Position numbers and translations under genes: made by a program
Part shown: positions 5,551 to 46,658 of the stretch, in pieces
How positions within the stretch are numbered: the first letter of the stretch is position 1
Layout of the letters: each line of letters begins with the position of its first letter
Source of the DNA: Candidatus Saccharimonadota bacterium
Lineage (GTDB): Bacteria > Patescibacteriota > Saccharimonadia > CAILAD01 > BJGX01
Length of the DNA: 46,951 nucleotides
NCBI GenBank assembly: GCA_016191105.1
Contig: JACPPH010000009.1
Coordinates: forward strand, 1-46,951
Direction: 5' to 3'
Notes under the pieces: generated by a model
What the model was told of the DNA's origin: nothing
Databases searched by the model: none
The model's input: only the letters and a program-made list of their open reading frames with translations

Positions 5551-5769
5551 TCAGTCAGACAGTTTTACAAATCTTGGCTGGCTTTTGCCTTCCCACTCCA
5601 CCGATTCTGCAAACATTTTGGCCGGCCTCACCCAAACCTGCGACTCTTTGTTCTCATACAAGCTAACATACGCTACCATTTCTTCTAACGTCTCAGAATG
5701 TTTGGCATTGGCCAATACTAGATATTTATTGCCTTTGTAGTGCTGGTAAATTCCGGGGCCGATTTTCAT
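5551..5769 (-). CDS. DUF1653-like small protein
   Basis: The YQHYKGNKYLVL...HSETLEEMVAYVSLY...VWVRPAKMF pattern is present. Its start overlaps the proS stop by 1 nt. Confidence 0.65.
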   Translation of the reverse strand: MKIGPGIYQHYKGNKYLVLANAKHSETLEEMVAYVSLYENKESQVWVRPAKMFAESVEWEGKSQPRFVKLSD

Positions 5770-7178
5770 TAATAAGCCTTGGCTAGAATTGTTTTATCTG
5801 GATCATCAAATGGGTAACAGCGCACCGTAATGCCATGCTTAGCCTTGAGCTCGGTTTCTTTTTTATCATCAATCTCAAAATCTGCACTTGCAAACTTGCC
5901 TTGCTCGACCGCTTCAACCAATTCTTTTTCGTCTTTTACAGGCACTGTATTCGAAGTTAGTTGATCTTGCGATGACTTAAGCAGGTTGGCCTGGATGTGG
6001 CCCAGGAGTTTTTCACAGTGGTTTTTAAGATCATCGAGCTTAACCGATGCTTTCTCAGATGTATCGCGGCGAACCACAACCACGGATTTAGATTCAACGT
6101 CGCGCGGGCCAATCTCGATTCGTATGGGTGCACCACGTTTTTCCCAAGCGAAAGCTTTCTCGCCAATGCGGGCATCGCGATCGTCAAGCTCGACATTGCC
6201 AAGCGCACCCAAGGAATCGGCGACCTGCTGAGCCGTTTTTTGAACATTGCCATCGGCATTTACCGTCATAATCACAGCTTTAATCGGTGCGAGTTTTGGC
6301 GGCAACACCAGACCCTTATCGTCGCCATGAGCCATAATTAAGCCACCAATGCTGCGAGTGCTTACTCCCCAGCTAGTCTGCCCAACATATTTTTGACTAC
6401 CATCCTCTGCACTATACTGGACATTAAAAGCTTTGGAGAAATTGTCGCCCAAATTATGCGAAGTGGCTATCTGCAGAGCCTTGCCGTCTTTCATCATAGC
6501 CTCTAGGGTATAGGTGGCTTTAGCGCCAGCAAAGCGCTCGGCCACACTTTTCTCGCCATCTATAGTTGCAATCGCCAATACGTTTGTCATAAGGTCTTGG
6601 TAAAATTCTAATACCTCCCTAGCAAACCCATCGGCTTCTTTAACGCTGGCATGAGCAGTGTGGCCTTCTTGCCACAAAAACTCTGTACTGCGCAGAAAAA
6701 GCCTAGGGCGCATTTCCCAGCGCACCACATTGGCCCACTGATTAATCTTAAATGGCAGGTCGCGATAACTATTAATCCATCTGCTGAAGCTCTCATACAT
6801 AATAGTTTCGCTGGTTGGGCGCACCACCAATGGTTCATCGAGCTTCTTACCGCCAGCATGGGTAACCACAGCTACTTCTGGTGCAAAGCCTTCGACATGC
6901 TTAGCCTCGCGATGCAGATAGCTTTCGGGTATAAAAATCGGGAAGTACATATTGGGTACACCGGCGGCATAAATACGTTGGCTCAATTCCTGTTGAATAC
7001 CTTCCCAAATGGCGTAACCATAAGGCTTAATTATCATGCTGCCCTTACTGGGCCCATGTTCAGCCAGATCGGCTGCCTCCACAACATCCTGATACCACCG
7101 GGGGAAATCTTGGTCTTGGGGAGTTATCTTTTTACTAGATCTGTCGGTACCAATAAAATAAGAGATTTGTTTTTTCAT
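5769..7178 (-). CDS. proS: Prolyl-tRNA synthetase, archaeal/eukaryote-like type
   Basis: It shows class II motifs, is 469 aa long with no bacterial INS editing domain, and has a C-terminal ...RCYPFDD...ILAKAY tail. Confidence 0.9.
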   Translation of the reverse strand: MKKQISYFIGTDRSSKKITPQDQDFPRWYQDVVEAADLAEHGPSKGSMIIKPYGYAIWEGIQQELSQRIYAAGVPNMYFPIFIPESYLHREAKHVEGFAPEVAVVTHAGGKKLDEPLVVRPTSETIMYESFSRWINSYRDLPFKINQWANVVRWEMRPRLFLRSTEFLWQEGHTAHASVKEADGFAREVLEFYQDLMTNVLAIATIDGEKSVAERFAGAKATYTLEAMMKDGKALQIATSHNLGDNFSKAFNVQYSAEDGSQKYVGQTSWGVSTRSIGGLIMAHGDDKGLVLPPKLAPIKAVIMTVNADGNVQKTAQQVADSLGALGNVELDDRDARIGEKAFAWEKRGAPIRIEIGPRDVESKSVVVVRRDTSEKASVKLDDLKNHCEKLLGHIQANLLKSSQDQLTSNTVPVKDEKELVEAVEQGKFASADFEIDDKKETELKAKHGITVRCYPFDDPDKTILAKAY

Positions 7179-24314: not shown

Positions 24315-25198
24315 TGCTTGGTAATCATCCTTAATACCGCTTGGCCAGTCGACCCTCTGACTGGCCCCATGGGTATTGTGTTGTAATCCAGACCCAGCTG
24401 TTCTTTGAGTTCGTTAAACTCTGAGTCTGCATAGGATAGCCGGTCTGTAATTTCCGACCGACCCGACACCGTATCTACCACCATGTCAGCTAGCGAATCT
24501 TTCCAGCTGGCATAGCTCCTTAAAACATCGCCATGGCTGCCAGTAACAAAGCCGTCCATGTAGACGCCGGGGGATTTTAGGGTCCGCGATAGTTCAGTAA
24601 TAAAATCAATTGATTTTGTTCGGTCAAGCGAGAAAATCAGTCCGCAACTAGTAACAAGATCGAAACTCTCATCTCTAAAAGGCAACCTGGTTACGTCGGC
24701 TGCAACCAGCCCAATCTTATTTTTTGTTCTCTCGCGGGCAATAGTGAGAAACTCTGTGCTTCGATCGAGCCCTGCAAAAGAATCACAAAAACCCGCTAGC
24801 CTCTTTGCCAACACACCGGTGCCCGTACCCAAATCAATGCCTTGGCCAAGTTTTGCCCGGTGTCTATTTATAACCTTTTGCATAAAGTCAGTGATGCTCT
24901 CTACAATTGTTGGGCTGCTGAAACCATAAAGCTCATCAAACCAGAGCTTGCCAGTAGGGCTGGGCTCTAGCGTCTGTAAATAGCGTTCCACTGGCGTATC
25001 TAAATGACGAACTGCCTCTGCAAAACCAATGAGTTGGTCGGCCGATATGCCTCTTAGGCCTTTTTCTAAACCCCTTTCTTCTGACTCTCGTGCTAGTGCA
25101 TAAACTGTTTGCCAAGTTTGTTCGTTCTCTACATCGGCAGTTTCTAAAAACTCCTGGCGCTTTTCTGGCGTAGTATCGGCAGAATATAGTTCACTCAT
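24311..25198 (-). CDS. Class I SAM-dependent methyltransferase
   Basis: It has motif I IDLGTGTGVLA, the acidic GLDRS after beta2 and FDLVTSCG. The junction with leuS is ATGA. Confidence 0.8.
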   Translation of the reverse strand: MSELYSADTTPEKRQEFLETADVENEQTWQTVYALARESEERGLEKGLRGISADQLIGFAEAVRHLDTPVERYLQTLEPSPTGKLWFDELYGFSSPTIVESITDFMQKVINRHRAKLGQGIDLGTGTGVLAKRLAGFCDSFAGLDRSTEFLTIARERTKNKIGLVAADVTRLPFRDESFDLVTSCGLIFSLDRTKSIDFITELSRTLKSPGVYMDGFVTGSHGDVLRSYASWKDSLADMVVDTVSGRSEITDRLSYADSEFNELKEQLGLDYNTIPMGPVRGSTGQAVLRMITKQ

Positions 25199-28074
25199 TG
25201 CTTGGTCACAAAGTTAACTAATCGACCTGGCACAACTACAGCTTTTACAATCTCGGCACCACTAGTCCAGCTAAGTTCGTCATTCTTAATGCGGGCCTCA
25301 GTTTCAATGGCTTTGGCATCAGCGCCAGCCTCAACCACAAACTCCCCGCGTAGTTTGCCATTTACCTGCACTACAATTGTAACCACGTCATCTTTTACTA
25401 ATTCTGGATCGTACTTGGGCCAAGACTGCAAATGGATGCTCTCGGTGCGGCCAAGCTGCTCCCACAACTCCTCGGCTATGTGAGGTACAAACGGCGCAAG
25501 GATTTGCAGCAAGCTCTCTATTGCAAGCGTCCACTCTGGCGACTTTTGCACACTATAATCACTCTTGTGTTTATAATACTCATTGGTCGCCTCCATAATT
25601 GCAGCTATGGCGGTGTTGAACTTTTCGCCCCCAATATCTTGAGTAACTTTTTTGATTGATTTGTGAGCAGACCTTGTAATGGCAGTGCCGGCTATAGGTT
25701 CAGTTTTGTTACCTTCCGCTGCCATGTAAGCCTGGGTCAAGCTCCAGACTCGACTCAAGAAACGATATGCACCGGGTACACCTTGTGGATCCCAAAGTAC
25801 ATCTTGCTCAACAGGGGCAGCAAACATTTCGTACAGCCGTAAAGCATCGGCACCGTTTTGCTCAATCACCTCCAATGGATCAACACCATTGCCTTTGCTT
25901 TTACTAAAGGCCGAGCCGTCCGGGGCTTTGATTTTGCCATTGTAGACCATCTTGTCGAATGGCTCGGGGCTGTCCACTAAGCCAAGTTTGTGGAAAAACC
26001 TTGTGAAGAATCGTGCATACAGCAAATGAGCCGTAGCATGATCGCCGCCATTGTAAAAATCTACGGGCATCCATTTTTTTGTAAGTGCTGGGTCCCAGGC
26101 TTGAGTATCGTCGTGTGGACTCAAGTAACGCAAGAAGTACCAGCTAGAGCAAACGTAGCCATCCATGGTGTCGGTCTCGCGCTTACCCATCTTTCCACAT
26201 GTCGGACAGGGAGCATTTACCCAGCCTTCTACGCCCGCCAGTACCGATACATTCCCGCCGGTAGGCTGGTAGTCCTTTATTTCGGGCAGCAACACTGGCA
26301 AATCTTTTTCAGGGACTGCTACTGCACCGTGTTCTTCGCAGTGAATAATTGGAATTGGTGCTCCCCAATACCGCTGACGGCTAATCAGCCAATCGCGCAT
26401 CTTGTATTGCACTTCTGGTTTAGCCAGCCCTTTTTTGCTCAAGAATTCAGTAATCTTTTCTCGGGCTTGGACCGAACTCATGCCGTCAAATTGGTCAGAG
26501 TTGTAAAGCACCCCATCGCCAGTAAATACCATGCGGGCAACAAACTTGTCATATACGTAGCGATGCAGGGGATCAACCACCTCTGTTTCGGCTTTGTCTT
26601 TGCTGATCCATTCAACCTTAAACTTATCTTTTTCATTATCTTCGAGCTGTTGGCTTTGGCGATTATCGCTCTTTAATCGGAAATGGACAGCCTTAGTGTG
26701 GGCAATTGTGGCCTGCTTTTTGGAATGCGCATAGTAGTGGTGGTGAATTGTTTCGTCACCTATCTCTATCAGCTCTAAGTCTGCGTAACCAGTCTCTTCA
26801 GCTACTTCGCGCTTGGCGGTTTTAACCGGATCTTCACCCTCTTCGACCGTACCGCCAACCAGTAAGCGCCCGCCAAGCTTTGGACCCCAGTTTATGGTCA
26901 AAACTTCGCCCTTAGCATTTTCCACCAAGGCCACAATCTTGCCCTTTTCTTTAGGCTCTTTTTGTTCACTGCCAGTTACAGGCTCAACCGAGGTCTTGAG
27001 TGGAATCTTATGCTTCATAGCGAATTCCACATCGCGTTCATCGTGGCCATCACCAAAAACCGCGCCTGTGCCATAGCCACCCAACACAAAGTCAGCTACC
27101 CAAATCGGCATTCTTTCACCACTGGCCGGGTTGGTTGCATAACTACCAGTAAAAACACCGGTCTTTTCTTTGGCCTCTTGACGGTCAACGTCGGTCTTAA
27201 CCACAGCCTGCTTGGTGTATTGTTCAACCTCGGCTTGCTTGTCATTTGTAGACAGCTCTTTGATTAGTGGGTTCTCAGGTGCCAACACTATAAACGTGCC
27301 GCTGTAGATTGTGTCTATTCGAGTAGTGTAGGCTTCAATGGTCTTGCTTGAATCCTCAATCGGAAACTTAACCAAAACACCTTGGCTACGACCAATCCAG
27401 CTTTTTTGCGAAGCTTTGACCGACTGGGTCCAGTTAAGATCATCTGTGGCCTTGAGCATCTCATCGGCATAATCAGTAATCTTAAAAAACCACTGCTTTA
27501 AGTTCTTTTTGGTTACTAGTGGATCATCCGGACCGTCATGACGCCAACACTTGCCATTTATTACCTGTTCGTCTGCTAAAACAGTCTTGCACTGATCGCA
27601 CCACCATTGAGCACTTTCTTTTTGATAAGCAAGCTTGTGCTCAAACAGCTTGGTAAAGATCCATTGCGTCCATTTGTAATACTCAGGGTCGGTCGTGTTG
27701 ATCTCTTTGCTCCAGTCGACCGCCCAGCCCATGGCTCGATATTGCTTTTGGTATTTAGCGATAGCTTTTTTGGTAGATTCTTGGGGTGAAACTCCCGTCT
27801 TGATAGCAAAGTTCTCGGCTGGCAAGCCAAATGAGTCCCAACCTACTGGCTGATACGAGGCATGGCCTTGTTGTCGCTTAAATCGAGTTATTACATCAGA
27901 AATCGTGTAATTGCGTACGTGCCCAACATGTATACCAGCGCCGCTTGGGTAATTAAACATACCAAAGCCATAAAACTTAGGATTTTTGCTGGCTAGGTCG
28001 ACAGAATAAATGCCTGTGTCTTGCCAGATTTTTTGCCATTTCGGCTCGATTGACTTAGGATCGTATTTTTTCAT
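25195..28074 (-). CDS. leuS: Leucyl-tRNA synthetase carrying an inserted Nudix-box domain
   Basis: It has HVGH (HIGH), FSKSK (KMSKS) and the CP1 editing motifs TTRIDT and GTGAVFGDGHDERD. At 959 aa it is about 100 aa longer than E. coli LeuRS. Confidence 0.95.
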   Translation of the reverse strand: MKKYDPKSIEPKWQKIWQDTGIYSVDLASKNPKFYGFGMFNYPSGAGIHVGHVRNYTISDVITRFKRQQGHASYQPVGWDSFGLPAENFAIKTGVSPQESTKKAIAKYQKQYRAMGWAVDWSKEINTTDPEYYKWTQWIFTKLFEHKLAYQKESAQWWCDQCKTVLADEQVINGKCWRHDGPDDPLVTKKNLKQWFFKITDYADEMLKATDDLNWTQSVKASQKSWIGRSQGVLVKFPIEDSSKTIEAYTTRIDTIYSGTFIVLAPENPLIKELSTNDKQAEVEQYTKQAVVKTDVDRQEAKEKTGVFTGSYATNPASGERMPIWVADFVLGGYGTGAVFGDGHDERDVEFAMKHKIPLKTSVEPVTGSEQKEPKEKGKIVALVENAKGEVLTINWGPKLGGRLLVGGTVEEGEDPVKTAKREVAEETGYADLELIEIGDETIHHHYYAHSKKQATIAHTKAVHFRLKSDNRQSQQLEDNEKDKFKVEWISKDKAETEVVDPLHRYVYDKFVARMVFTGDGVLYNSDQFDGMSSVQAREKITEFLSKKGLAKPEVQYKMRDWLISRQRYWGAPIPIIHCEEHGAVAVPEKDLPVLLPEIKDYQPTGGNVSVLAGVEGWVNAPCPTCGKMGKRETDTMDGYVCSSWYFLRYLSPHDDTQAWDPALTKKWMPVDFYNGGDHATAHLLYARFFTRFFHKLGLVDSPEPFDKMVYNGKIKAPDGSAFSKSKGNGVDPLEVIEQNGADALRLYEMFAAPVEQDVLWDPQGVPGAYRFLSRVWSLTQAYMAAEGNKTEPIAGTAITRSAHKSIKKVTQDIGGEKFNTAIAAIMEATNEYYKHKSDYSVQKSPEWTLAIESLLQILAPFVPHIAEELWEQLGRTESIHLQSWPKYDPELVKDDVVTIVVQVNGKLRGEFVVEAGADAKAIETEARIKNDELSWTSGAEIVKAVVVPGRLVNFVTKQ
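26530..26979 (-). other. Roughly 150-aa Nudix hydrolase-like domain nested inside leuS (residues about 366-515)
   Basis: GTVEEGEDPVKTAKREVAEETGY (nt 26788-26856) is a perfect match to G-x5-E-x7-REUxEExGU. The insert lies between KHKIPLKTSV and GVLYNSDQFDG, which are about 20 aa apart in E. coli LeuRS. Confidence 0.75.
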
Positions 28075-28106
28075 AATGACCTTATTCTATCAGATTAATT
28101 TAGTAC

Positions 28107-28145
28107 GGACACGGCCCGGGGTGGTTTCCCACCCCGAAGCCGTCC
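28107..28145 (-). other. Long imperfect GC-rich hairpin with a GAAA loop, about 30 nt upstream of the leuS ATG
   Basis: On the minus strand the sequence is GGACGGCTTCGGGGTGG-GAAA-CCACCCCGGGCCGTGTCC. No U-run follows it. Confidence 0.5.
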
Positions 28146-28170
28146 GCAAGGGCACCTGTCCTGACTGAGC

Positions 28171-28326
28171 TCAGGCGTATGGCACCAAGCCGTCAGGAAA
28201 ACGAGCTTTGTCAAAGGCTGGCCAGACTGGCGGCCAGGAATGACCAATTGCACTCTCGACCTGAGTGTTGTCTGGTGTCGAGCTGATCTGGGTTGTAATC
28301 GGTTGTGTGGTTGCTTGTTTCTTCAT
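28171..28326 (-). CDS. Small (51 aa) hypothetical protein in a GC-rich mini-islet inside the leuS leader, absent from the ORF track
   Basis: AGGGAGAG lies just upstream of the ATG at 28326. The product is MKKQATTQPITTQISSTPDNTQVESAIGHSWPPVWPAFDKARFPDGLVPYA, with TGA at 28171-73. Confidence 0.35.
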   Translation of the reverse strand: MKKQATTQPITTQISSTPDNTQVESAIGHSWPPVWPAFDKARFPDGLVPYA

Positions 28327-28392
28327 GTCTCTCCCTTGGTGCTTATCCTTGCTATCAGCTCACGAACGAATCGTAAGCTGATTGTCTAGACA

Positions 28393-28416
28393 AACAAAAA
28401 ACCGCCTTTCGGCGGT
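28393..28416 (-). terminator. Intrinsic terminator / attenuator (GACCGCC-GAAA-GGCGGUU-UUUU)
   Basis: The hairpin is at 28401-28416, and the plus-strand A-run at 28396-28400 gives a U-run on the minus strand. It lies 23 nt after the leader ORF stop. Confidence 0.6.
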
Positions 28417-28438
28417 CAGATTCTTGAAAAACTATTTA

Positions 28439-28519
28439 TTATCGATCAGCGCGTACACGAACCTTAACCGCCTTACGGGGCACCAGTAGAGTAAGTAGGT
28501 TAAGTAAAAATTCTCGCAT
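28439..28519 (-). CDS. Candidate Leu-codon-rich leader peptide (26 aa, MREFLLNLLTLLVPRKAVKVRVRADR)
   Basis: Six Leu codons fall within codons 5-12. The ATG lies 10 nt after the -10 box, so the mRNA is nearly leaderless. A terminator follows. Confidence 0.4.
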   Translation of the reverse strand: MREFLLNLLTLLVPRKAVKVRVRADR

Positions 28520-28529
28520 AACGATTCTG

Positions 28530-28558
28530 ATATTACGCTTATAGTTGTACTCTGTCAA
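28530..28558 (-). promoter_or_regulatory. Near-consensus sigma70-type promoter (TTGACA-17 nt-TAATAT)
   Basis: On the minus strand, TTGACA is at 28558-28553 and TAATAT at 28535-28530, with a 17-nt spacer. Confidence 0.55.
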
Positions 28559-28577
28559 GCTAGTTTCACAAACTTTT

Positions 28578-29603
28578 TTAAACATGTCGGATTTTTTTGC
28601 GGGCAACTTCCACAGCCAGATTCAAAGCGTACTTAGTTTTGTTAACCACTAAGTCTTGGGCGTGCAAATACTCGACATCTTCACCACCAAAGCCGCGCTT
28701 GAAGACCGATACCCCATGGAATCTGTGGCTAGCCTCGCCCGCCGGCGCTACCCCCCAGAAGTTATAGCGACTCATGCCGCGCTTTTTGGCCTCACGAATA
28801 GCCTGCCACTGAATAAGCGGTGCGCCAGGATACTTGCGGCCTTCAAGAGTGCTGGCACCATAATGATAAGCAGCCTCTTCCCCATAAAATATCACAAATG
28901 CTTGGGCCAACAACTTGCCGTCGCGATGTGCGCTATAGAGTTTAGCCATGTCGTGCTCGGCAAAGGTCCTGAATTGCTTCTCTAGAAAGTCATAGCTAAA
29001 CGGCACAAAACCCTGGCGCTTGGCCGTCTCCATCTGTAGATCATAAAAGGCCTTAAGATCTTGAGGACTCGATGACTGGCTAACTTTTACACATTGCTTG
29101 ATGGCTTTGCGAATCTCATAGCGGGTTTGCTGACGCATATCTGCCATAATTTCATCTTCGGATTTGCTAAGATCAAGTTGGCTGGTTAACTCGGCTGAGA
29201 GGTGCATTGGACTCGGCCGAAAGCCGGCTTGAGCAAAGATAGTTTTCGCAAAGTCATTGCTGATTAACTGCGGTCGAACCCGGACAAATACACACTTTTG
29301 ATCGTTAATCAGCTGCCGCAGAGATTCAGCCCAGATCCTCACCAGGTTTTGGTTGTGCCAATCTAATATTGGCCCACCAGCAACCGCCATATAGCGTCCA
29401 CGCCGAGCCGCTTCGGTTACACTCAACATCACACCTGCCAGCTTACTTCCTTCAAAGTAGCCTAGGCGATGTATATTTTTGCCTAGAGATTTGTTAAATT
29501 CACCCCAATACCACGATTGTAAAAAATTAGCCTCAGGGTGCTTAGCTAAAAAAGCCTCCCAAACTTTCTCTTCTTCAATTGTTTTAATTGTTATTGCTGG
29601 CAT
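28578..29603 (-). CDS. FemX/FemAB-family aminoacyl-tRNA-dependent peptidoglycan peptidyltransferase
   Basis: The N-terminus is WEAFLAKHPEANFLQSWYWGEF. The protein is about 340 aa with C-terminal FKRGFGG. Confidence 0.8.
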   Translation of the reverse strand: MPAITIKTIEEEKVWEAFLAKHPEANFLQSWYWGEFNKSLGKNIHRLGYFEGSKLAGVMLSVTEAARRGRYMAVAGGPILDWHNQNLVRIWAESLRQLINDQKCVFVRVRPQLISNDFAKTIFAQAGFRPSPMHLSAELTSQLDLSKSEDEIMADMRQQTRYEIRKAIKQCVKVSQSSSPQDLKAFYDLQMETAKRQGFVPFSYDFLEKQFRTFAEHDMAKLYSAHRDGKLLAQAFVIFYGEEAAYHYGASTLEGRKYPGAPLIQWQAIREAKKRGMSRYNFWGVAPAGEASHRFHGVSVFKRGFGGEDVEYLHAQDLVVNKTKYALNLAVEVARKKIRHV

Positions 29604-30784
29604 TGGTTTATAACTTCGCTTATTTTCTGAGCCAGGCCGGGAGTTATCTGTCTGTGAGTTGGCAGATTAATAATTTGTCTGCACAGCTTCTCGGCATTGG
29701 GGCATTGGCCGGTTTTGTAGGTAGTTGCGCTCATATAGCGAGGTGGTGCGATTGGTGTGTCGTACCATGTATCAGTTATATATATGCATTGTTTGGCCAG
29801 CTCGGCAAAAACCTTATCGCGATCCTTAACGACTGCTGGGAAGCGCAAGCATGACGATTTAGCAAGTTTACTCGAGGCCAGAAGTTGTACTGAACTATCA
29901 AAATTATCTGCATAGACCTTGGCCAAATTCTGACGTCGGCTCAGTTCCGAGGACAAGTCTTTGAACTGGTTTAGGGCGAGCCTGGCCTGCCATGCAGAAA
30001 TAGCATGACCCTCGTAGTATTCGGCGTCGACCGAGCGCGAAAGCAGACCAAGTTTCTTGAACAAACTGTGCAAGAGTTTTCCTATGCCAAAAATGCCATA
30101 AAAAACTCGGACTTTCCAAGTTAGTATTGGGTACAAGCAGTCGCGCATGCGGGCTGAGGCTGGCGGCTTAGACAGCCTAAATTGATCTAGCTTTTGGTAT
30201 TTGCCGGTGCGAACCACGAGTGCCCCGCCCGACACCGCATCGATCAGCTTATCGCGGCCAAAGCTGAGCATGGCAAAATCACCAACAGTGCCGACTTCGC
30301 GCCCATCGGCATATTTGGTTTTAACACCGTGGGCCAAATCTTCGATCAAAACAAGCCCGTGCTCTTTACAAACTTTTTCGATACCGGCAATATCGCACGG
30401 CACGCCAAGAGTATTTTGAATGATCACCGCCTTAACTTTTGCATTCTTACTAACAGCTTGCTCAAGTTGAGTTGCAGAGAATTGTAGTCCGCCAGGCTCT
30501 ATGTCGACAAACTCCGCTTCGCACCCGGCATAAGTCACTGCTCGATAGACCGCATAGCAAGTAAAGCCATTAATTGCAACTGCTGAGCCTTTCGGTAGAT
30601 CGCTTAATTTGACTGCTAGCTGCAAAGCCTCGCGACCTTTGTATGTCAGTAGCGCCTTACCAGCATAGGTTTTTTCGAGTTCGCCTGTGAGTTCTTGTGT
30701 GGCCGTTTTAGAACCAATCCCAAAGAAAGCCCGCCAGATTTCTGAGGCACTATAATTTGAGCCCAGGGAGTTGAAAATGCTCAC
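29591..30784 (-). CDS. DegT/DnrJ/EryC1/StrS-family PLP-dependent aminotransferase
   Basis: The fold-type I layout is present, with SFGRDKLIDAVSGGAL (Lys-containing PLP motif). Confidence 0.7.
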   Translation of the reverse strand: MSIFNSLGSNYSASEIWRAFFGIGSKTATQELTGELEKTYAGKALLTYKGREALQLAVKLSDLPKGSAVAINGFTCYAVYRAVTYAGCEAEFVDIEPGGLQFSATQLEQAVSKNAKVKAVIIQNTLGVPCDIAGIEKVCKEHGLVLIEDLAHGVKTKYADGREVGTVGDFAMLSFGRDKLIDAVSGGALVVRTGKYQKLDQFRLSKPPASARMRDCLYPILTWKVRVFYGIFGIGKLLHSLFKKLGLLSRSVDAEYYEGHAISAWQARLALNQFKDLSSELSRRQNLAKVYADNFDSSVQLLASSKLAKSSCLRFPAVVKDRDKVFAELAKQCIYITDTWYDTPIAPPRYMSATTYKTGQCPNAEKLCRQIINLPTHRQITPGLAQKISEVINQCQQ

Positions 30785-31473
30785 CTCAACAACTCCAGAA
30801 TGGTATCGCCAACAATTTCTGGGTTGGTATAGAACGGTGAGTGTCGGCCCTCTTTAATCACTTGGAGCTTTGAGCCCTTGATCTGCTCATGAATTTGTTT
30901 ACCATCACTCAAAGGGGTTAACTTGTCGTCTTCACCCCAAATAATGGTTGTGGGCACTCTTACTTCTTCAAAATGCAGATTCTTATTGTCACGCTGCAGG
31001 TTAACCATGGTCTGCTTCATGTTTTCTGGCGCACGTTCGTAATCATGAGCTCGGCTGGCTTTGTATAGTAGTTTTTTTAGCTTGGGTGAGCGAGTAATCT
31101 TCTTGCCGGCTTTGGCAGCAGCTTTAAACATTCGCAGGCGCAGTTTTAGAGTTGCTTGATCGTGGTGTACGCCAGCACTATCTATTAATATGAGTTGTCT
31201 AACTCGCTCAGGATTTTGGATTACAAAATTGGCGCATATACGGCCACCATTGGAGTGACCGACTAATACAAATGGCTGCTTGGCTGACTTGGTTTGATCT
31301 TTCAGCCAATCAGTATACTTCTGCAAGTCCCAAATCTCTTTAGATGGAGCAGTGAGGCCAGGAACTTTTAGCATGGTGGGCTCAACATCCTTGCTTTTCA
31401 GATACGTCATAAGCTTTTCCCACTTACTAAGGTCATAAGCCCAGCCGTGGACAACATAGATTCTTGGCCTCAT
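30781..31473 (-). CDS. Alpha/beta hydrolase
   Basis: It has the VLVGHSNGG nucleophile elbow and a late GRHSPF His. I prefer the ATG at 31473 (MRPRIYVVHGW). Confidence 0.75.
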   Translation of the reverse strand: MRPRIYVVHGWAYDLSKWEKLMTYLKSKDVEPTMLKVPGLTAPSKEIWDLQKYTDWLKDQTKSAKQPFVLVGHSNGGRICANFVIQNPERVRQLILIDSAGVHHDQATLKLRLRMFKAAAKAGKKITRSPKLKKLLYKASRAHDYERAPENMKQTMVNLQRDNKNLHFEEVRVPTTIIWGEDDKLTPLSDGKQIHEQIKGSKLQVIKEGRHSPFYTNPEIVGDTILELLR

Positions 31474-31475
31474 AG

Positions 31476-32759
31476 CTATAGTCCCCAAGCCCTTCGGCGT
31501 TTTACCCAAACAGCCTCACGTCGGCATAGCTTTGCGGCATCGGCCTTATCTTTTAGTAGGTGCTCAATTACGCCTTCTAAAAAGCGGGTGCCCTTAAATA
31601 GAATCGTCTCGCCACCTGTTAGCTCTGACTCTAGTATGTCTAAAACCTCGCGCGGTGTCTTCACAGCAGTGTGTTCGACCTTGAGTTGGGTCAAAACTGG
31701 CGAACAGAACTTTTTGCAACGTGGCCCCATAACAATAATCTTATCAAACTTATACTTTGCAATGTCGCGGGCTAACTGCTGGTGCACTTTTTGCTCACTT
31801 TCGCCCTGCTCCAAAACGTCGCTAATTACTACCCATTTTTTAGGCACATCGAGGCTAGCAAACATATTCAAGATGGCCTCAGCCGCATCTAACGAGGCGT
31901 TGTAGGTGCCGTCTATTAAGGTAGTGTTTTTAATGCCTTTGAAGACTGAGCTGCGACCTGGTGGGGGCAGAAAGTTCTTGAAATCCTTGTCGAACTTAAA
32001 GTTAAGGTTGAAACAAAGTATCAAAGTAGCGAGAGCTGATAGGCCAGCCTCCTCAGGAACTAGCGATGGAATGGTAAACTCTTTTGGTAATTGTTTAAAG
32101 TTTCCTTCGTGGGTGAATATTGTGGACTCTAGACCTGGCCGGTAGCTAACTATGTTTTTACTAGAAACCAGAATATTCTCTTTTGGCCCCAGTCCGGGTT
32201 CACTCTGTTTAGTTATGTCCGGGTTATCTCGATTTAATATTGAAAGCTCCGATGTTGCTCTTAAGATGTGTCCATATTCAAAAGCAATCGCTTGCTCGAC
32301 ATTGTTGAATTTACCGCTTTTAACCAGCTTATCGAAATTCATAGCATGGGTTTGGGTGCTGGATAGCCAAATTACACCATTCGGTCGTAATAGCTCAGCC
32401 AAGAACTTACCTTCGCCTGGCCGATCACAATCAACCTCAACCACATAGATACTCTGTTTATGTATGCCCTTGAATGCCTTAAATGGTGCCTTGGAAATTA
32501 AACTTAACCACTCTGTCCGTTTCAATTCCTTGCGACTTAGGCCCAAGATATCGAATGGCACACCAAAACTGCTGTTAGCCTTATGCGAGTAGCGAGCCTT
32601 GCTGCCTAGCTGCGCCTCAGCCAAATGAAGCATGGTGGTTTTGCCGCTGGAGCCAGTAATCACAAATACTTTTGGGCGCCAGCGCTTTAACTGGATCTTG
32701 GCCCAAAAACGAAAATATCGAGCTGCCACAAAATAGAGGCGCTTCTTCAATGGACTCAT
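31476..32759 (-). CDS. Mur ligase family protein lacking the N-terminal UDP-binding domain
   Basis: It has the VITGSSGKTT P-loop and central and C-terminal Mur-ligase-like regions. SD AGGAGAA precedes the start. Confidence 0.7.
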   Translation of the reverse strand: MSPLKKRLYFVAARYFRFWAKIQLKRWRPKVFVITGSSGKTTMLHLAEAQLGSKARYSHKANSSFGVPFDILGLSRKELKRTEWLSLISKAPFKAFKGIHKQSIYVVEVDCDRPGEGKFLAELLRPNGVIWLSSTQTHAMNFDKLVKSGKFNNVEQAIAFEYGHILRATSELSILNRDNPDITKQSEPGLGPKENILVSSKNIVSYRPGLESTIFTHEGNFKQLPKEFTIPSLVPEEAGLSALATLILCFNLNFKFDKDFKNFLPPPGRSSVFKGIKNTTLIDGTYNASLDAAEAILNMFASLDVPKKWVVISDVLEQGESEQKVHQQLARDIAKYKFDKIIVMGPRCKKFCSPVLTQLKVEHTAVKTPREVLDILESELTGGETILFKGTRFLEGVIEHLLKDKADAAKLCRREAVWVKRRRAWGL

Positions 32760-32805: not shown

Positions 32806-32858
32806 GGTTGTTTTCTTGCGCCAAAGCATAGCCGTAGCTACGCTGCGAAGTAAAAAAT
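32806..32858 (-). promoter_or_regulatory. Conserved 53-nt palindrome-containing element, copy 1 (candidate promoter plus operator)
   Basis: On the minus strand it reads ATTTTTTACTTCGCAGCGTAGCTACGGCTATGCTTTGGCGCAAGAAAACAACC. The near-identical copy is at 46606-46658. It lies 62 nt upstream of the ATG. Confidence 0.55.
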
Positions 32859-44947: not shown

Positions 44948-46558
44948 TTAGCCGCTGGTGTCGGCAATTATTTCAACCTTTATACGGCTCGAGAAAAACG
45001 GCATGTTGGGGTCGAGCGCTGGAGTAGTCTCAACCTGTACATTGGTGGTCTGTGGGTATTGTGACTTAACCTTATCGGACACGTCTTTCTTGGCTTTGCC
45101 GGCGGCGTCTTTGGCCACTTGGGTGGTATCGATAGTGTCACCATAGTAAGCGCTGGTGTCGGCTGTAAGCTGAACCCGACTATCGCCCACCAGCTTGGCA
45201 TTTGTGTATCTGGCATCGGCTCGGCCATTTTGATAAATCTGGGTGCCACCAGGAATCTTAGTCTTTACCTGAGCATCGAATAGGCCATCGAGGTCTTTGT
45301 TGTTGGCTGCAAAGACTGTGTAGGCTACCTTAATATTGAGCGTGCCCGAACCAGCCTCGGCCCCAACGGCTGCCGAGGGTTGCGAGTTTACCACTGTAGC
45401 CCTATACGAATCGCTTAAGACGGTTTGTTGGTTGCTGGCCTTACTGGCAACCTCTTGTTTGTTGCCACTTTCGGCTTGGGCTAGAGCCGTTTTTTGAGCG
45501 TTGGCAATATCGTCGGCCGTTACCACAGTTACGGTTTTGCTACTGCCGCCACTGGTGGAGCCGCTAGCGCCAATGCCACCATAGCCCGAGACTGCAAAGG
45601 TAGCCGAGCTCATATTGTAGCTGTCGCCATTTTGGGTAGCTGTAATGTTGCCATTGGCCGAACCGGCTACAATACTGCCGCCTTGCACTGTGGCTCCCGG
45701 CACGTTTACAGTCGAATCAAGGCTAAAATTCTTGCCACCCGAGCTCAAAACGGTGCCGGCTGAAATTGTAACCGAGTTCGAGCTGTTAGCATTAGTAAAC
45801 TTAACCTGCCCGCTAGCCTTACTGCCAACGTCCTTTTTGCCGGTGGCATCATAGGTAGCGCTTAAGTCTTTATTGGCCTCGAGCTTTTGGGCAGCAATTT
45901 GGCCAGCTGCAAAGTTACTTTGGCTGGTACCCGAATCGGCCGTAAATTGAAAACTAACTGGCGTTTTGTTGGCCTTGGCAGTAAGAATAACCTTACCGGT
46001 CGGCAAAAACACGTAGGCCAGAATTAGTAGCAAGAATACCGCGGCAATACCCACACCTACCAAAATCTTCTTATTGAGCTTGTCGAATTTAGGGACTTTT
46101 ACCTTCTTGCCGCTGGGCGGAGCCTGCACACTGCGATCTTTGCTTAGTCGCTTGCGAACAATGCCGCCACTGGCAGTGGCCGTAGCCTCGCCAGCATCAG
46201 CTGCAGAACTTGGCTCAGGTTCGGGCTCGGGCCCATTAATCTCAATTGGCTCGTTGCTAGCTGTAGCAGCCTCGGGAGCCTCGGGTACCGCCGCCTCGGC
46301 TTTAACGCTGCTGGCTACGGCCACACCTAGGGCACCAGCGAGGCCAAGGGTGGTTTTATCGCCACTTACCAGTACCAACTTTTTATTGTGGTCGCTGGCG
46401 GCTTTTTTGAGCAGCTTTAAATTTACGGCGCTTTGTAAGATGCTCGAACGAGCCGGGGCCACCAAGCGAACCTCGTCGGCTTTGGCGGCTTTGAGCTTAT
46501 CGATAGCCTCGGTTATTTCACTGTCGGTGTCTAGATAGAGTACTTCTGGAGGGTTCAT
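44948..46558 (-). CDS. Membrane-anchored S/T/G/A-rich hypothetical protein (536 aa)
   Basis: It has an N-terminal cytoplasmic domain, one TM segment (ILVGVGIAAVFLLLILAYVFL) and a long beta-rich exterior. SD GAGG precedes the start. Confidence 0.6.
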   Translation of the reverse strand: MNPPEVLYLDTDSEITEAIDKLKAAKADEVRLVAPARSSILQSAVNLKLLKKAASDHNKKLVLVSGDKTTLGLAGALGVAVASSVKAEAAVPEAPEAATASNEPIEINGPEPEPEPSSAADAGEATATASGGIVRKRLSKDRSVQAPPSGKKVKVPKFDKLNKKILVGVGIAAVFLLLILAYVFLPTGKVILTAKANKTPVSFQFTADSGTSQSNFAAGQIAAQKLEANKDLSATYDATGKKDVGSKASGQVKFTNANSSNSVTISAGTVLSSGGKNFSLDSTVNVPGATVQGGSIVAGSANGNITATQNGDSYNMSSATFAVSGYGGIGASGSTSGGSSKTVTVVTADDIANAQKTALAQAESGNKQEVASKASNQQTVLSDSYRATVVNSQPSAAVGAEAGSGTLNIKVAYTVFAANNKDLDGLFDAQVKTKIPGGTQIYQNGRADARYTNAKLVGDSRVQLTADTSAYYGDTIDTTQVAKDAAGKAKKDVSDKVKSQYPQTTNVQVETTPALDPNMPFFSSRIKVEIIADTSG

Positions 46559-46605: not shown

Positions 46606-46658
46606 GGTGGTTTTATTGTGCCAAACCATAGCCGTAGCTACGGTGCGAAGCAAAAAAT
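46606..46658 (-). promoter_or_regulatory. Conserved 53-nt palindrome-containing element, copy 2
   Basis: On the minus strand it reads ATTTTTTGCTTCGCACCGTAGCTACGGCTATGGTTTGGCACAATAAAACCACC. It lies 63 nt upstream of the ATG at 46558. Confidence 0.55.

Follow-up and report, generated by a model that had tools for sequence, protein, structure and literature searches.

We identified a candidate transcription attenuator upstream of leuS, the leucyl-tRNA synthetase gene, on contig JACPPH010000009.1 (46,951 nt, the whole of which is referred to here as the window) from a Saccharibacteria (TM7) genome obtained from a groundwater metagenome and belonging to the candidate phyla radiation (CPR). The element occupies positions 28393-28558 and lies on the minus strand throughout. 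It combines a promoter, a short leader open reading frame (ORF) with a leucine-codon run and an intrinsic terminator whose formation is predicted to depend on the position of the translating ribosome. We give a probability of about 50% to the interpretation that this is a ribosome-mediated leader-peptide attenuator sensing charged tRNA-Leu, with leuS as the beneficiary. CPR bacteria, Saccharibacteria included, combine tiny genomes with few recognizable regulators and a lack of amino acid biosynthesis, and how they sense the nutrient supply from their hosts is, to our knowledge, largely unknown.

Architecture of the leader

The leader starts with a promoter consisting of a perfect consensus -35 hexamer, TTGACA (28553-28558), and, after a 17-nt spacer, the -10 hexamer TAATAT (28530-28535), with a promoter score of 10/12. 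Ten nucleotides further downstream (N10), an ATG at 28519 opens an ORF of 26 codons plus stop (28439-28519; MREFLLNLLTLLVPRKAVKVRVRADR followed by the stop), which lacks a Shine-Dalgarno (SD) site, is predicted to be translated from a near-leaderless message and ends with the tandem stops TAA TAA (28441-28436). Codons 5 to 12 of this ORF read TTA CTT aac CTA CTT act CTA CTG (28484-28507), that is, six Leu codons in eight, among which TTG, the commonest Leu codon, is not used. At least six Leu codons per eight occur twice across the six frames of the 47-kb window, and the leader run is the sole occurrence on the minus strand; such a cluster was found in 52 of 20,000 shuffles of the intergenic region (0.26%). 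An earlier interpretation of the window from its letters alone (hereafter, the sequence-only reading) had proposed a Leu-codon attenuator at this place, and the promoter with its spacing, the start codon, the 26-codon ORF and the six Leu codons (28507-28484) are all present as it described them. The terminator stem begins 21 nt after the first stop codon, rather than 23 nt as it stated.

The intrinsic terminator (28392-28417) is formed by GACCGCC-GAAA-GGCGGUU, a 7-bp stem with a GAAA loop, and the following tract TTTTGTTT/UUUUGUUU, in which seven of eight nucleotides are U. Its predicted free energy is -12.3 kcal/mol, and it is the single hairpin with a U-tract in the window. The alternative pairings involve four segments. 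Segment 1 (CUUAACC ua CUUAC, 28491-28504) lies inside the Leu codons and, in the minimum free energy structure of the free RNA, pairs with segment 2 (GUAAG GC GGUUAAG GUUC, 28459-28476). Alternatively, segment 2 can pair, via GGCGGUUA-a-GGUUC, with segment 3 (GAAUC UGACCGCC, 28411-28423), which provides the antiterminator with its 3' arm and the terminator with its 5' arm. Segment 4 (GGCGGUU, 28400-28406) is the 3' arm of the terminator. The complementarity of CTTAACC (28504-28498) to GGTTAAG (28469-28463) and the duplication of GGCGGTT (28472-28466 and 28406-28400), both noted previously, are borne out, whereas the helices are longer than the 7 bp assigned to them: the 1:2 helix has 7+5 bp (CUUAACC/GGUUAAG plus CUUAC/GUAAG) and the 2:3 antiterminator has 8+5 bp, 13 in total, formed between 28472-28459 and 28423-28411. 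Because both helices use 28472-28463, they are mutually exclusive. At -17.2 kcal/mol, the antiterminator is stronger than the terminator. In the read-through fold, GCCCC (28477-28481) is predicted, from structures with masked nucleotides, to capture segment 4.

A predicted ribosome-dependent fold switch

We computed equilibrium folds of the transcript 28523-28400 with the nucleotides under the ribosome footprint forced to be single-stranded, using four footprint sizes. In the free RNA, the 1:2 helix and the terminator form, with a terminator probability of 0.96. When the A site occupies the stop codon, this probability is 0.76-0.95, and with the A site on Leu5, Leu6, Leu8 or Leu9, it drops to 0.005-0.09; values are intermediate for Leu11 and Leu12 and at least 0.95 from Val13 to Arg23. 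The dependence on the stall position is the same across the four footprint sizes, and the ribosome positions at which the fold flips are exactly those of the regulatory-codon run. When a switch was defined as a terminator probability above 0.9 in the free RNA and below 0.05 in the masked RNA, it was reproduced by one of 1000 dinucleotide shuffles of the leader in which the terminator was kept, and by none of the 58 natural hairpin-plus-U terminators found in ~1.2 Mb of related loci. Thus, the folding check that the sequence-only reading had called for yields the 1:2 / 2:3 / 3:4 switch and ties it to the Leu codons.

The same reading had counted the missing SD site as a weakness, which our survey of the window does not uphold. 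In 9 of 47 window genes, including proS (5769-7178) and leuS, a -10 hexamer (at least 5/6 matches) ends 6-11 nt upstream of the start codon, against 0.8 expected, and the same arrangement is usual in related genomes; clear SD sites are present on other window genes, mostly operon-internal ones. The TAATAT-N10-ATG arrangement of the leader falls within this class of genes and within the N7-N11 range of related leuS loci. Given these nine genes, near-leaderless translation appears to be the local norm rather than an anomaly.

A mechanism consistent with these elements would operate as follows. The TTGACA-17-TAATAT promoter would initiate transcription ~3-6 nt ahead of the leader ATG (28519), and the RNA would be translated near-leaderless. 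With plentiful Leu-tRNA, the ribosome would reach the tandem stops, segments 1 and 2 would pair behind it, the terminator would form and the polymerase would stop at ~28395. With scarce Leu-tRNA, the ribosome would stall when its A site reaches Leu codons 5-9 (to a lesser extent 11-12) and cover segment 1, so that segment 2 (GGCGGUUAAGGUUC) would pair with segment 3 (GAAUCUGACCGCC), GCCCC would capture segment 4 and the polymerase would continue. The read-through RNA would then cross a 317-nt spacer into leuS, adding to a constitutive near-leaderless leuS transcript, and on this long RNA, the AAGG before the leuS AUG might serve as a weak ribosome-binding site. Firing of the promoter, translation of the ORF, regulated termination in vivo and the choice of leuS as the target are all predicted features of this scheme.

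If this mechanism holds, transcription and translation would be coupled in Saccharibacteria and other CPR bacteria, near-leaderless messages would be translated promptly, and tRNA charging would be monitored in cis. A literature search returned no paper on transcription attenuation in Saccharibacteria. It is possible, although we favour this broader claim a little short of evenly, that the leader is the first ribosome-mediated attenuator in the CPR (Patescibacteria), in which a near-leaderless peptide acts as a tRNA-Leu sensor that adds inducible read-through to a constitutive leuS promoter in an amino acid-auxotrophic epibiont.

Comparison with known leaders

A Leu-rich leader with attenuation at leuS has been predicted for Streptomyces coelicolor and S. 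avermitilis (Seliverstov et al. 2005, PMC1262725), and RNA sequencing of S. lividans TK24 revealed a leaderless leader peptide, LeuL2 (MRAVRLLLSEPR), with a hairpin and a U stretch, upstream of leuS (PMC8079986). The leader described here resembles leuL2 in that a short Leu-rich leader peptide, leaderless in its geometry, precedes leuS and is followed by a hairpin and a U stretch; terminator and antiterminator hairpins have been proposed in both cases, and the proposed target is an aminoacyl-tRNA synthetase gene rather than a biosynthetic operon. However, Streptomyces belongs to the Actinobacteria and Saccharibacteria is a CPR phylum, MRAVRLLLSEPR is 12 aa long compared with 26 aa here, and the two peptides share at most an 'MR...L-run'. 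Furthermore, the Leu codons of the present leader are interrupted (LLNLLTLL), 320 nt separate its terminator from leuS, which retains a promoter of its own. The leader is most likely a leader-peptide attenuator that senses Leu-tRNA, a counterpart of the Streptomyces leuS leader, in which case the leaderless type of leader peptide in front of an aminoacyl-tRNA synthetase gene would extend to a very distant phylum.

The four-segment 1:2 / 2:3 / 3:4 logic is that of the pheST operon of Escherichia coli, with its pheM leader, and of enterobacterial leuL. As in those leaders, segment 1 is overlapped by the regulatory codons, and the position of the stop codon lets the 1:2 helix and the 3:4 terminator form behind a ribosome that finishes translation; pheST also exemplifies an aminoacyl-tRNA synthetase controllable by leader-peptide attenuation. 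Unlike the present leader, pheM and leuL have SD sites and consecutive regulatory codons, and they sit a few tens of nucleotides from a gene that has no second promoter at its start codon. The leader is not a member of the Rfam family Trp_leader (RF00513): the match scored 18.6 bits (E = 0.49), was driven by the terminator and compares with a gathering score of 41.

The T-box leuS leaders of Firmicutes likewise report tRNA-Leu charging through a choice between terminator and antiterminator. A T-box binds uncharged tRNA directly and depends on the conserved T-box sequence in addition to Stem I and a specifier loop, whereas the leader here is only ~125 nt long. With a cut-off of E <= 10, the T-box riboswitch model (RF00230) did not match anywhere in 28000-28700. 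As a kind of positive control, the same model recovered, at 33.3 bits (E = 8e-6; below the Rfam gathering score of 93), a T-box-like leader upstream of leuS in a metagenome-assembled genome of another CPR lineage, Dojkabacteria (L032, 2751-2924), which includes AAAAUGGGUGGUACCACC and a terminator. We also rejected a type I toxin or small membrane peptide, given that the hydrophobic stretch spans ~10-11 residues and no plus-strand promoter-like site occurs in 28393-28560.

Conservation and related loci

For comparison, we collected 160 leuS loci, 80 from GTDB and 80 from metagenomes (L001-L160), with LeuS identity up to ~69%; a relative with 85% LeuS identity was also found (P0002). In tblastn searches against the related loci, the leader peptide had no homologue, and a 55-aa extended leader ORF yielded no candidate. 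Among the sequencing runs, X1 contained the sequence itself, X2, X3 and X6 contained low-coverage fragments, X4 and X5 contained no relative, and a scan of viral contigs found nothing.

In run X2, from soil, a 339-nt contig ~97% identical to the window covers 28246-28568, and all its listed differences fall in the leader. These are a change of the start codon from ATG to GTG, two synonymous changes in Arg codons, an in-frame 6-nt duplication (ACTGGT) in the 1:2 loop that adds Val-Leu, and a U-to-C change at 28420 that turns a G-U pair of the antiterminator into G-C. Thus, this variant retains the reading frame, a start codon (GTG), the Leu run with one Leu codon more, an identical terminator and the switch for stalls at Leu5-12.

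Although leader homologues were not detected, short Leu-rich upstream ORFs (uORFs) recur at a few other loci. In 16 related loci, leuS is preceded by 110 nt or more, and near-leaderless uORFs with an LLL run occur in two of them, compared with a mean of 0.19 in shuffles (P for at least two, 0.0175). One of these (L059, 2866-2965) has TTGAAT-17-TATAAT-N10-ATG, the peptide MFVFNCSVVALLLPAGM with its stop and a hairpin followed by U6, 42 nt before leuS; the other (L026, 2885-2945) has TGGTATAGT-N6-ATG and the peptide MTSLRRRTLLLAR with its stop, 60 nt before an SD-led leuS. Both are among the 13 loci that lack a proximal leuS promoter. A third locus (L102, ~1290-1370) may be a further case, with the near-leaderless, Leu-run uORF MTALAPFASVYLLP ending at a stop. 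In L059 and L102, the Leu codons lie in the 5' arm of a CUCCC/GGGAG hairpin that is followed by a U-rich tract. As a counter-example, L030 carries a leaderless uORF without Leu. LLL uORFs at L131, L113, L078, L068 and L074 were not counted, being located in coding sequence or lacking the promoter geometry. These uORFs (L059, L026 and possibly L102) hint that the strategy recurs where leuS lacks a proximal promoter.

The leuS promoter and the spacer

The leuS gene (25195-28074, minus strand) has an extended -10 element of its own, TGaTAGAAT (28084-28092; -10 hexamer 28089-28084), separated from its ATG by nine nucleotides (N9) in the context cTGaTAGAAT-aaggtcatt-ATG, where the spacer AAGGTCATT holds a weak SD-like AAGG. 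Such a -10 (at least 5/6 matches) is present at N5-12, with a mode of N9, in 127 of the 140 related leuS loci that have a start codon at the aligned position, compared with a background of 4.7%, and in 111 of these 127 it is TGn-extended. An SD-like 4-mer between the promoter and the ATG was found in only 9 of the 127, so the AAGG is unusual, and there is a weak hint that it might act as an SD site on long transcripts. This conserved promoter, which implies that leuS mRNAs may be near-leaderless as a norm in Saccharibacteria, is a solid by-product of the comparison, independent of the fate of the attenuator. The extended -10 (TGnTAnnnT) is found 7-11 nt before the leuS start even where the end of the upstream gene is 20-70 nt away. 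In two loci (L085 and L155), the true LeuS N-terminus (MQRYNPKEIEP...) and a TATAAT-N10 promoter lie ~80-100 nt upstream of the remaining alignment, which may reflect an intervening element, a frameshift or an insertion close to codon 20; the match of L085 exceeds the usual length by ~1.3 kb.

Between the terminator and leuS lies a structured spacer of 317 nt (28075-28391; z = -4.2). A perfect 12-bp palindrome, TTGTCTAGACAA (28382-28393), of a kind expected ~0.1 times per 500 nt, is located directly 3' of the terminator U-tract and could be a candidate protein-binding site. It is followed by a 12-bp hairpin, H1 (28382-28354), and an orphan ORF of 51 codons (28326-28171) with a strong SD site (AAGGGAGAG) like those of operon-internal genes in this genome. 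This ORF contains a single Leu, is in frame with leuS with intervening stop codons, and had no homologue among 5.8 billion proteins apart from the self-match; no Pfam family was detected in the small ORFs of the region. A GC-rich hairpin, H4 (28138-28115), precedes the leuS -10 by ~25 nt. Hairpins of this type, GC-rich, 10-13 bp long and lacking a U-tract, are found after stop codons or before the next promoter at 37719-37694, 11790-11763 (preceding the tgt promoter), 10500-10471, 7658-7631 and 28138-28115 (H4 itself), and they seem to be the usual gene-end signal of this genome.

At gathering thresholds, the Rfam search of the whole window returned two tRNAs only, and at E <= 10 in 28000-28700, it returned sub-threshold chance matches, with no T-box, riboswitch, SRP or 6S RNA; a tRNA/tmRNA scan was negative in this region. 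An origin of the spacer by decay of the gene that precedes leuS in related genomes was rejected, because that gene matches window positions 31476-32759 only, and so was a mobile-element origin, because neither a repeat family nor flanking inverted repeats overlap 28075-28560.

Weighing the explanations

Several observations weigh against a leuS attenuator. The gene has its own conserved promoter at the ATG, ~320 nt beyond the terminator, so it does not depend on the leader, which cannot be its main route of transcription; leuS is not directly downstream of the terminator, and read-through could only supplement its expression. The intervening 317 nt contain an SD-led orphan ORF and strong hairpins, and H4, which looks like a gene-end hairpin, could stop leader read-through. 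By itself, the promoter match is not rare (16 sites in 9 kb against 10.9 expected). No DNA homologue of the leader was detected by blastn or nhmmer in the 160 related loci (LeuS identity up to ~69%), and the evidence for conservation comes from a single, near-identical fragment (~97%), which is compatible with the model; in this X2 variant, one footprint size gives a terminator probability of 0.20 with the ribosome at the stop codon. Two identical 151-nt contigs from a wastewater metatranscriptome (X7) map inside leuS, and none covers the leader or the spacer. Finally, the folding describes equilibrium rather than kinetics, and we know of no demonstration that messages with leaders of a few nucleotides are translated in CPR bacteria. 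The attenuator logic initially proposed is thus retained with its full anatomy in silico, whereas its link to leuS has become weaker, given the conserved promoter and the 317-nt spacer. The proposed increase in leuS transcription holds to the extent that read-through may add to the output of the start-proximal promoter. Transcription of leuS from a different start, which had been named as an observation that would speak against the attenuator, is indicated in part by the comparative evidence from the 127 of 140 loci.

Among the alternatives, a genuine attenuator might instead serve a unit within the spacer, either the 51-codon ORF or a structured RNA, that ends at H4, with leuS transcribed from its own promoter only. 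The strong SD site of the ORF, the resemblance of H4 to the U-less hairpins located after stop codons at other places in the window, and the conserved, self-sufficient leuS promoter are in line with this scenario, as is the X2 contig, in which the covered part of the spacer, and with it the covered part of the 51-codon ORF, is invariant while the leader has four substitutions and an indel. However, the ORF lacks both homologues and a Pfam family, and the adjacency of a Leu sensor to leuS would be left as an unexplained coincidence. Even with H4, read-through into leuS would be likely, given that a hairpin lacking a U-tract is an inefficient intrinsic terminator. On balance, we consider a spacer target unlikely. 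A similarly unlikely explanation is an independent near-leaderless gene for a 26-aa protein with a Leu-rich hydrophobic N-terminal half and a basic C-terminal half, in which the pairings would be incidental and leuS would not be regulated. Promoter, start codon and terminator do make up a complete mini transcription unit, the X2 variant fits coding constraint, with two changes that are synonymous, an indel that stays in frame and a start codon that is kept, and Leu-rich stretches are common in small hydrophobic peptides; however, a hydrophobic stretch of ~10-11 residues is too short for a membrane helix, no homologue was found, a switch tied to the Leu codons would be a matter of chance (about 0.1-1%), and so would be the adjacency to leuS, one gene of an estimated one thousand.

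The remaining alternatives dispense with the peptide. The hairpin and U-tract could mark the end of the upstream operon, which encodes a Mur-ligase-like protein, a hydrolase, a DegT-type aminotransferase and a FemAB-family protein, and insulate the leuS promoter, with the ORF, its Leu run and the promoter-like site all arising by chance in a 3' untranslated region. Promoter-like matches are frequent, the genes are co-oriented, no other terminator is present between the FemAB stop codon (28578) and the hairpin, and a strong insulator before leuS would be plausible for a gene block inserted relative to related genomes. Against these points stand the joint coincidences that would be required, namely the Leu cluster (0.26%), the switch (0.1%) and a perfect -35 combined with the 17-nt spacing and the N10-ATG, as well as the location of the hairpin 160 nt past the FemAB stop and the lack of canonical terminators at the other operons of the window; we judge this explanation to be quite improbable. 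More doubtful still is a non-coding, trans-acting small RNA of ~125 nt with an untranslated ORF: its size and its promoter and terminator layout would be typical, the free RNA folds into a 5' domain and the terminator, and two of the three X2 substitutions in the 5' domain keep the predicted pairs, but the fold is not significantly more stable than those of shuffled sequences (z = -1.57), no Rfam family matches, and the Leu-codon run, the in-frame indel and a start codon at leaderless distance would be left unexplained. The small-protein, operon-terminator and small-RNA explanations would each require several low-probability coincidences.

Genomic setting

The minus strand carries nearly all genes of the window, and the best LeuS matches in GTDB and metagenomes are from Saccharibacteria only. 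The leader lies in a 503-nt intergenic region between the FemAB-family gene (28578-29603, minus strand), which closes the block of Mur-ligase, alpha/beta hydrolase, DegT-type aminotransferase and FemAB genes, and leuS, the next real gene 3' of the leader. The Mur-ligase-like gene (32759-31476, minus strand) is located upstream of the hydrolase/DegT/FemAB block, and in most relatives, only 20-70 nt separate it from leuS. Compared with most of the related loci L001-L080, the hydrolase/DegT aminotransferase/FemAB block (28578-31509) and the 503-nt region are extra here, which points to either a lineage-specific insertion in this genome or a loss elsewhere. A database look-up of the FemAB protein matched its own contig only.

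In a hairpin scan, the stretch from the end of FemAB to the leader contained no terminator. The leader ORF can be extended in frame to 48 codons by an ATG at 28585 that overlaps the FemAB stop (cATGtTTAA); thus, ribosomes ending FemAB translation could reinitiate there and read the Leu codons on operon read-through RNA.

The leuS product is 959 aa long and contains a NUDIX domain inserted at aa 381-510 (window positions 26545-26934; Pfam PF00293, E = 2e-13). This insert is common to most of the Saccharibacteria LeuS matches and absent from a subset of ~815-830 aa.

Two repeated sequences were observed elsewhere in the window. A 53-nt element occurs in two copies, 89% identical: one (32806-32858) in the 5' region of the Mur-ligase-like gene (31476-32759), the other (46606-46658) in that of an orphan gene for a 536-aa protein (44948-46558), both genes being on the minus strand. 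The element holds a 10-bp palindrome (CGTAGCTACG), has no Rfam match and could be a shared operator or RNA motif. At the window edge (52-255), a 60-nt unit is repeated in tandem at least three times with 85-100% identity; the repeats probably correspond to 20-residue repeats in a protein that extends beyond the window.

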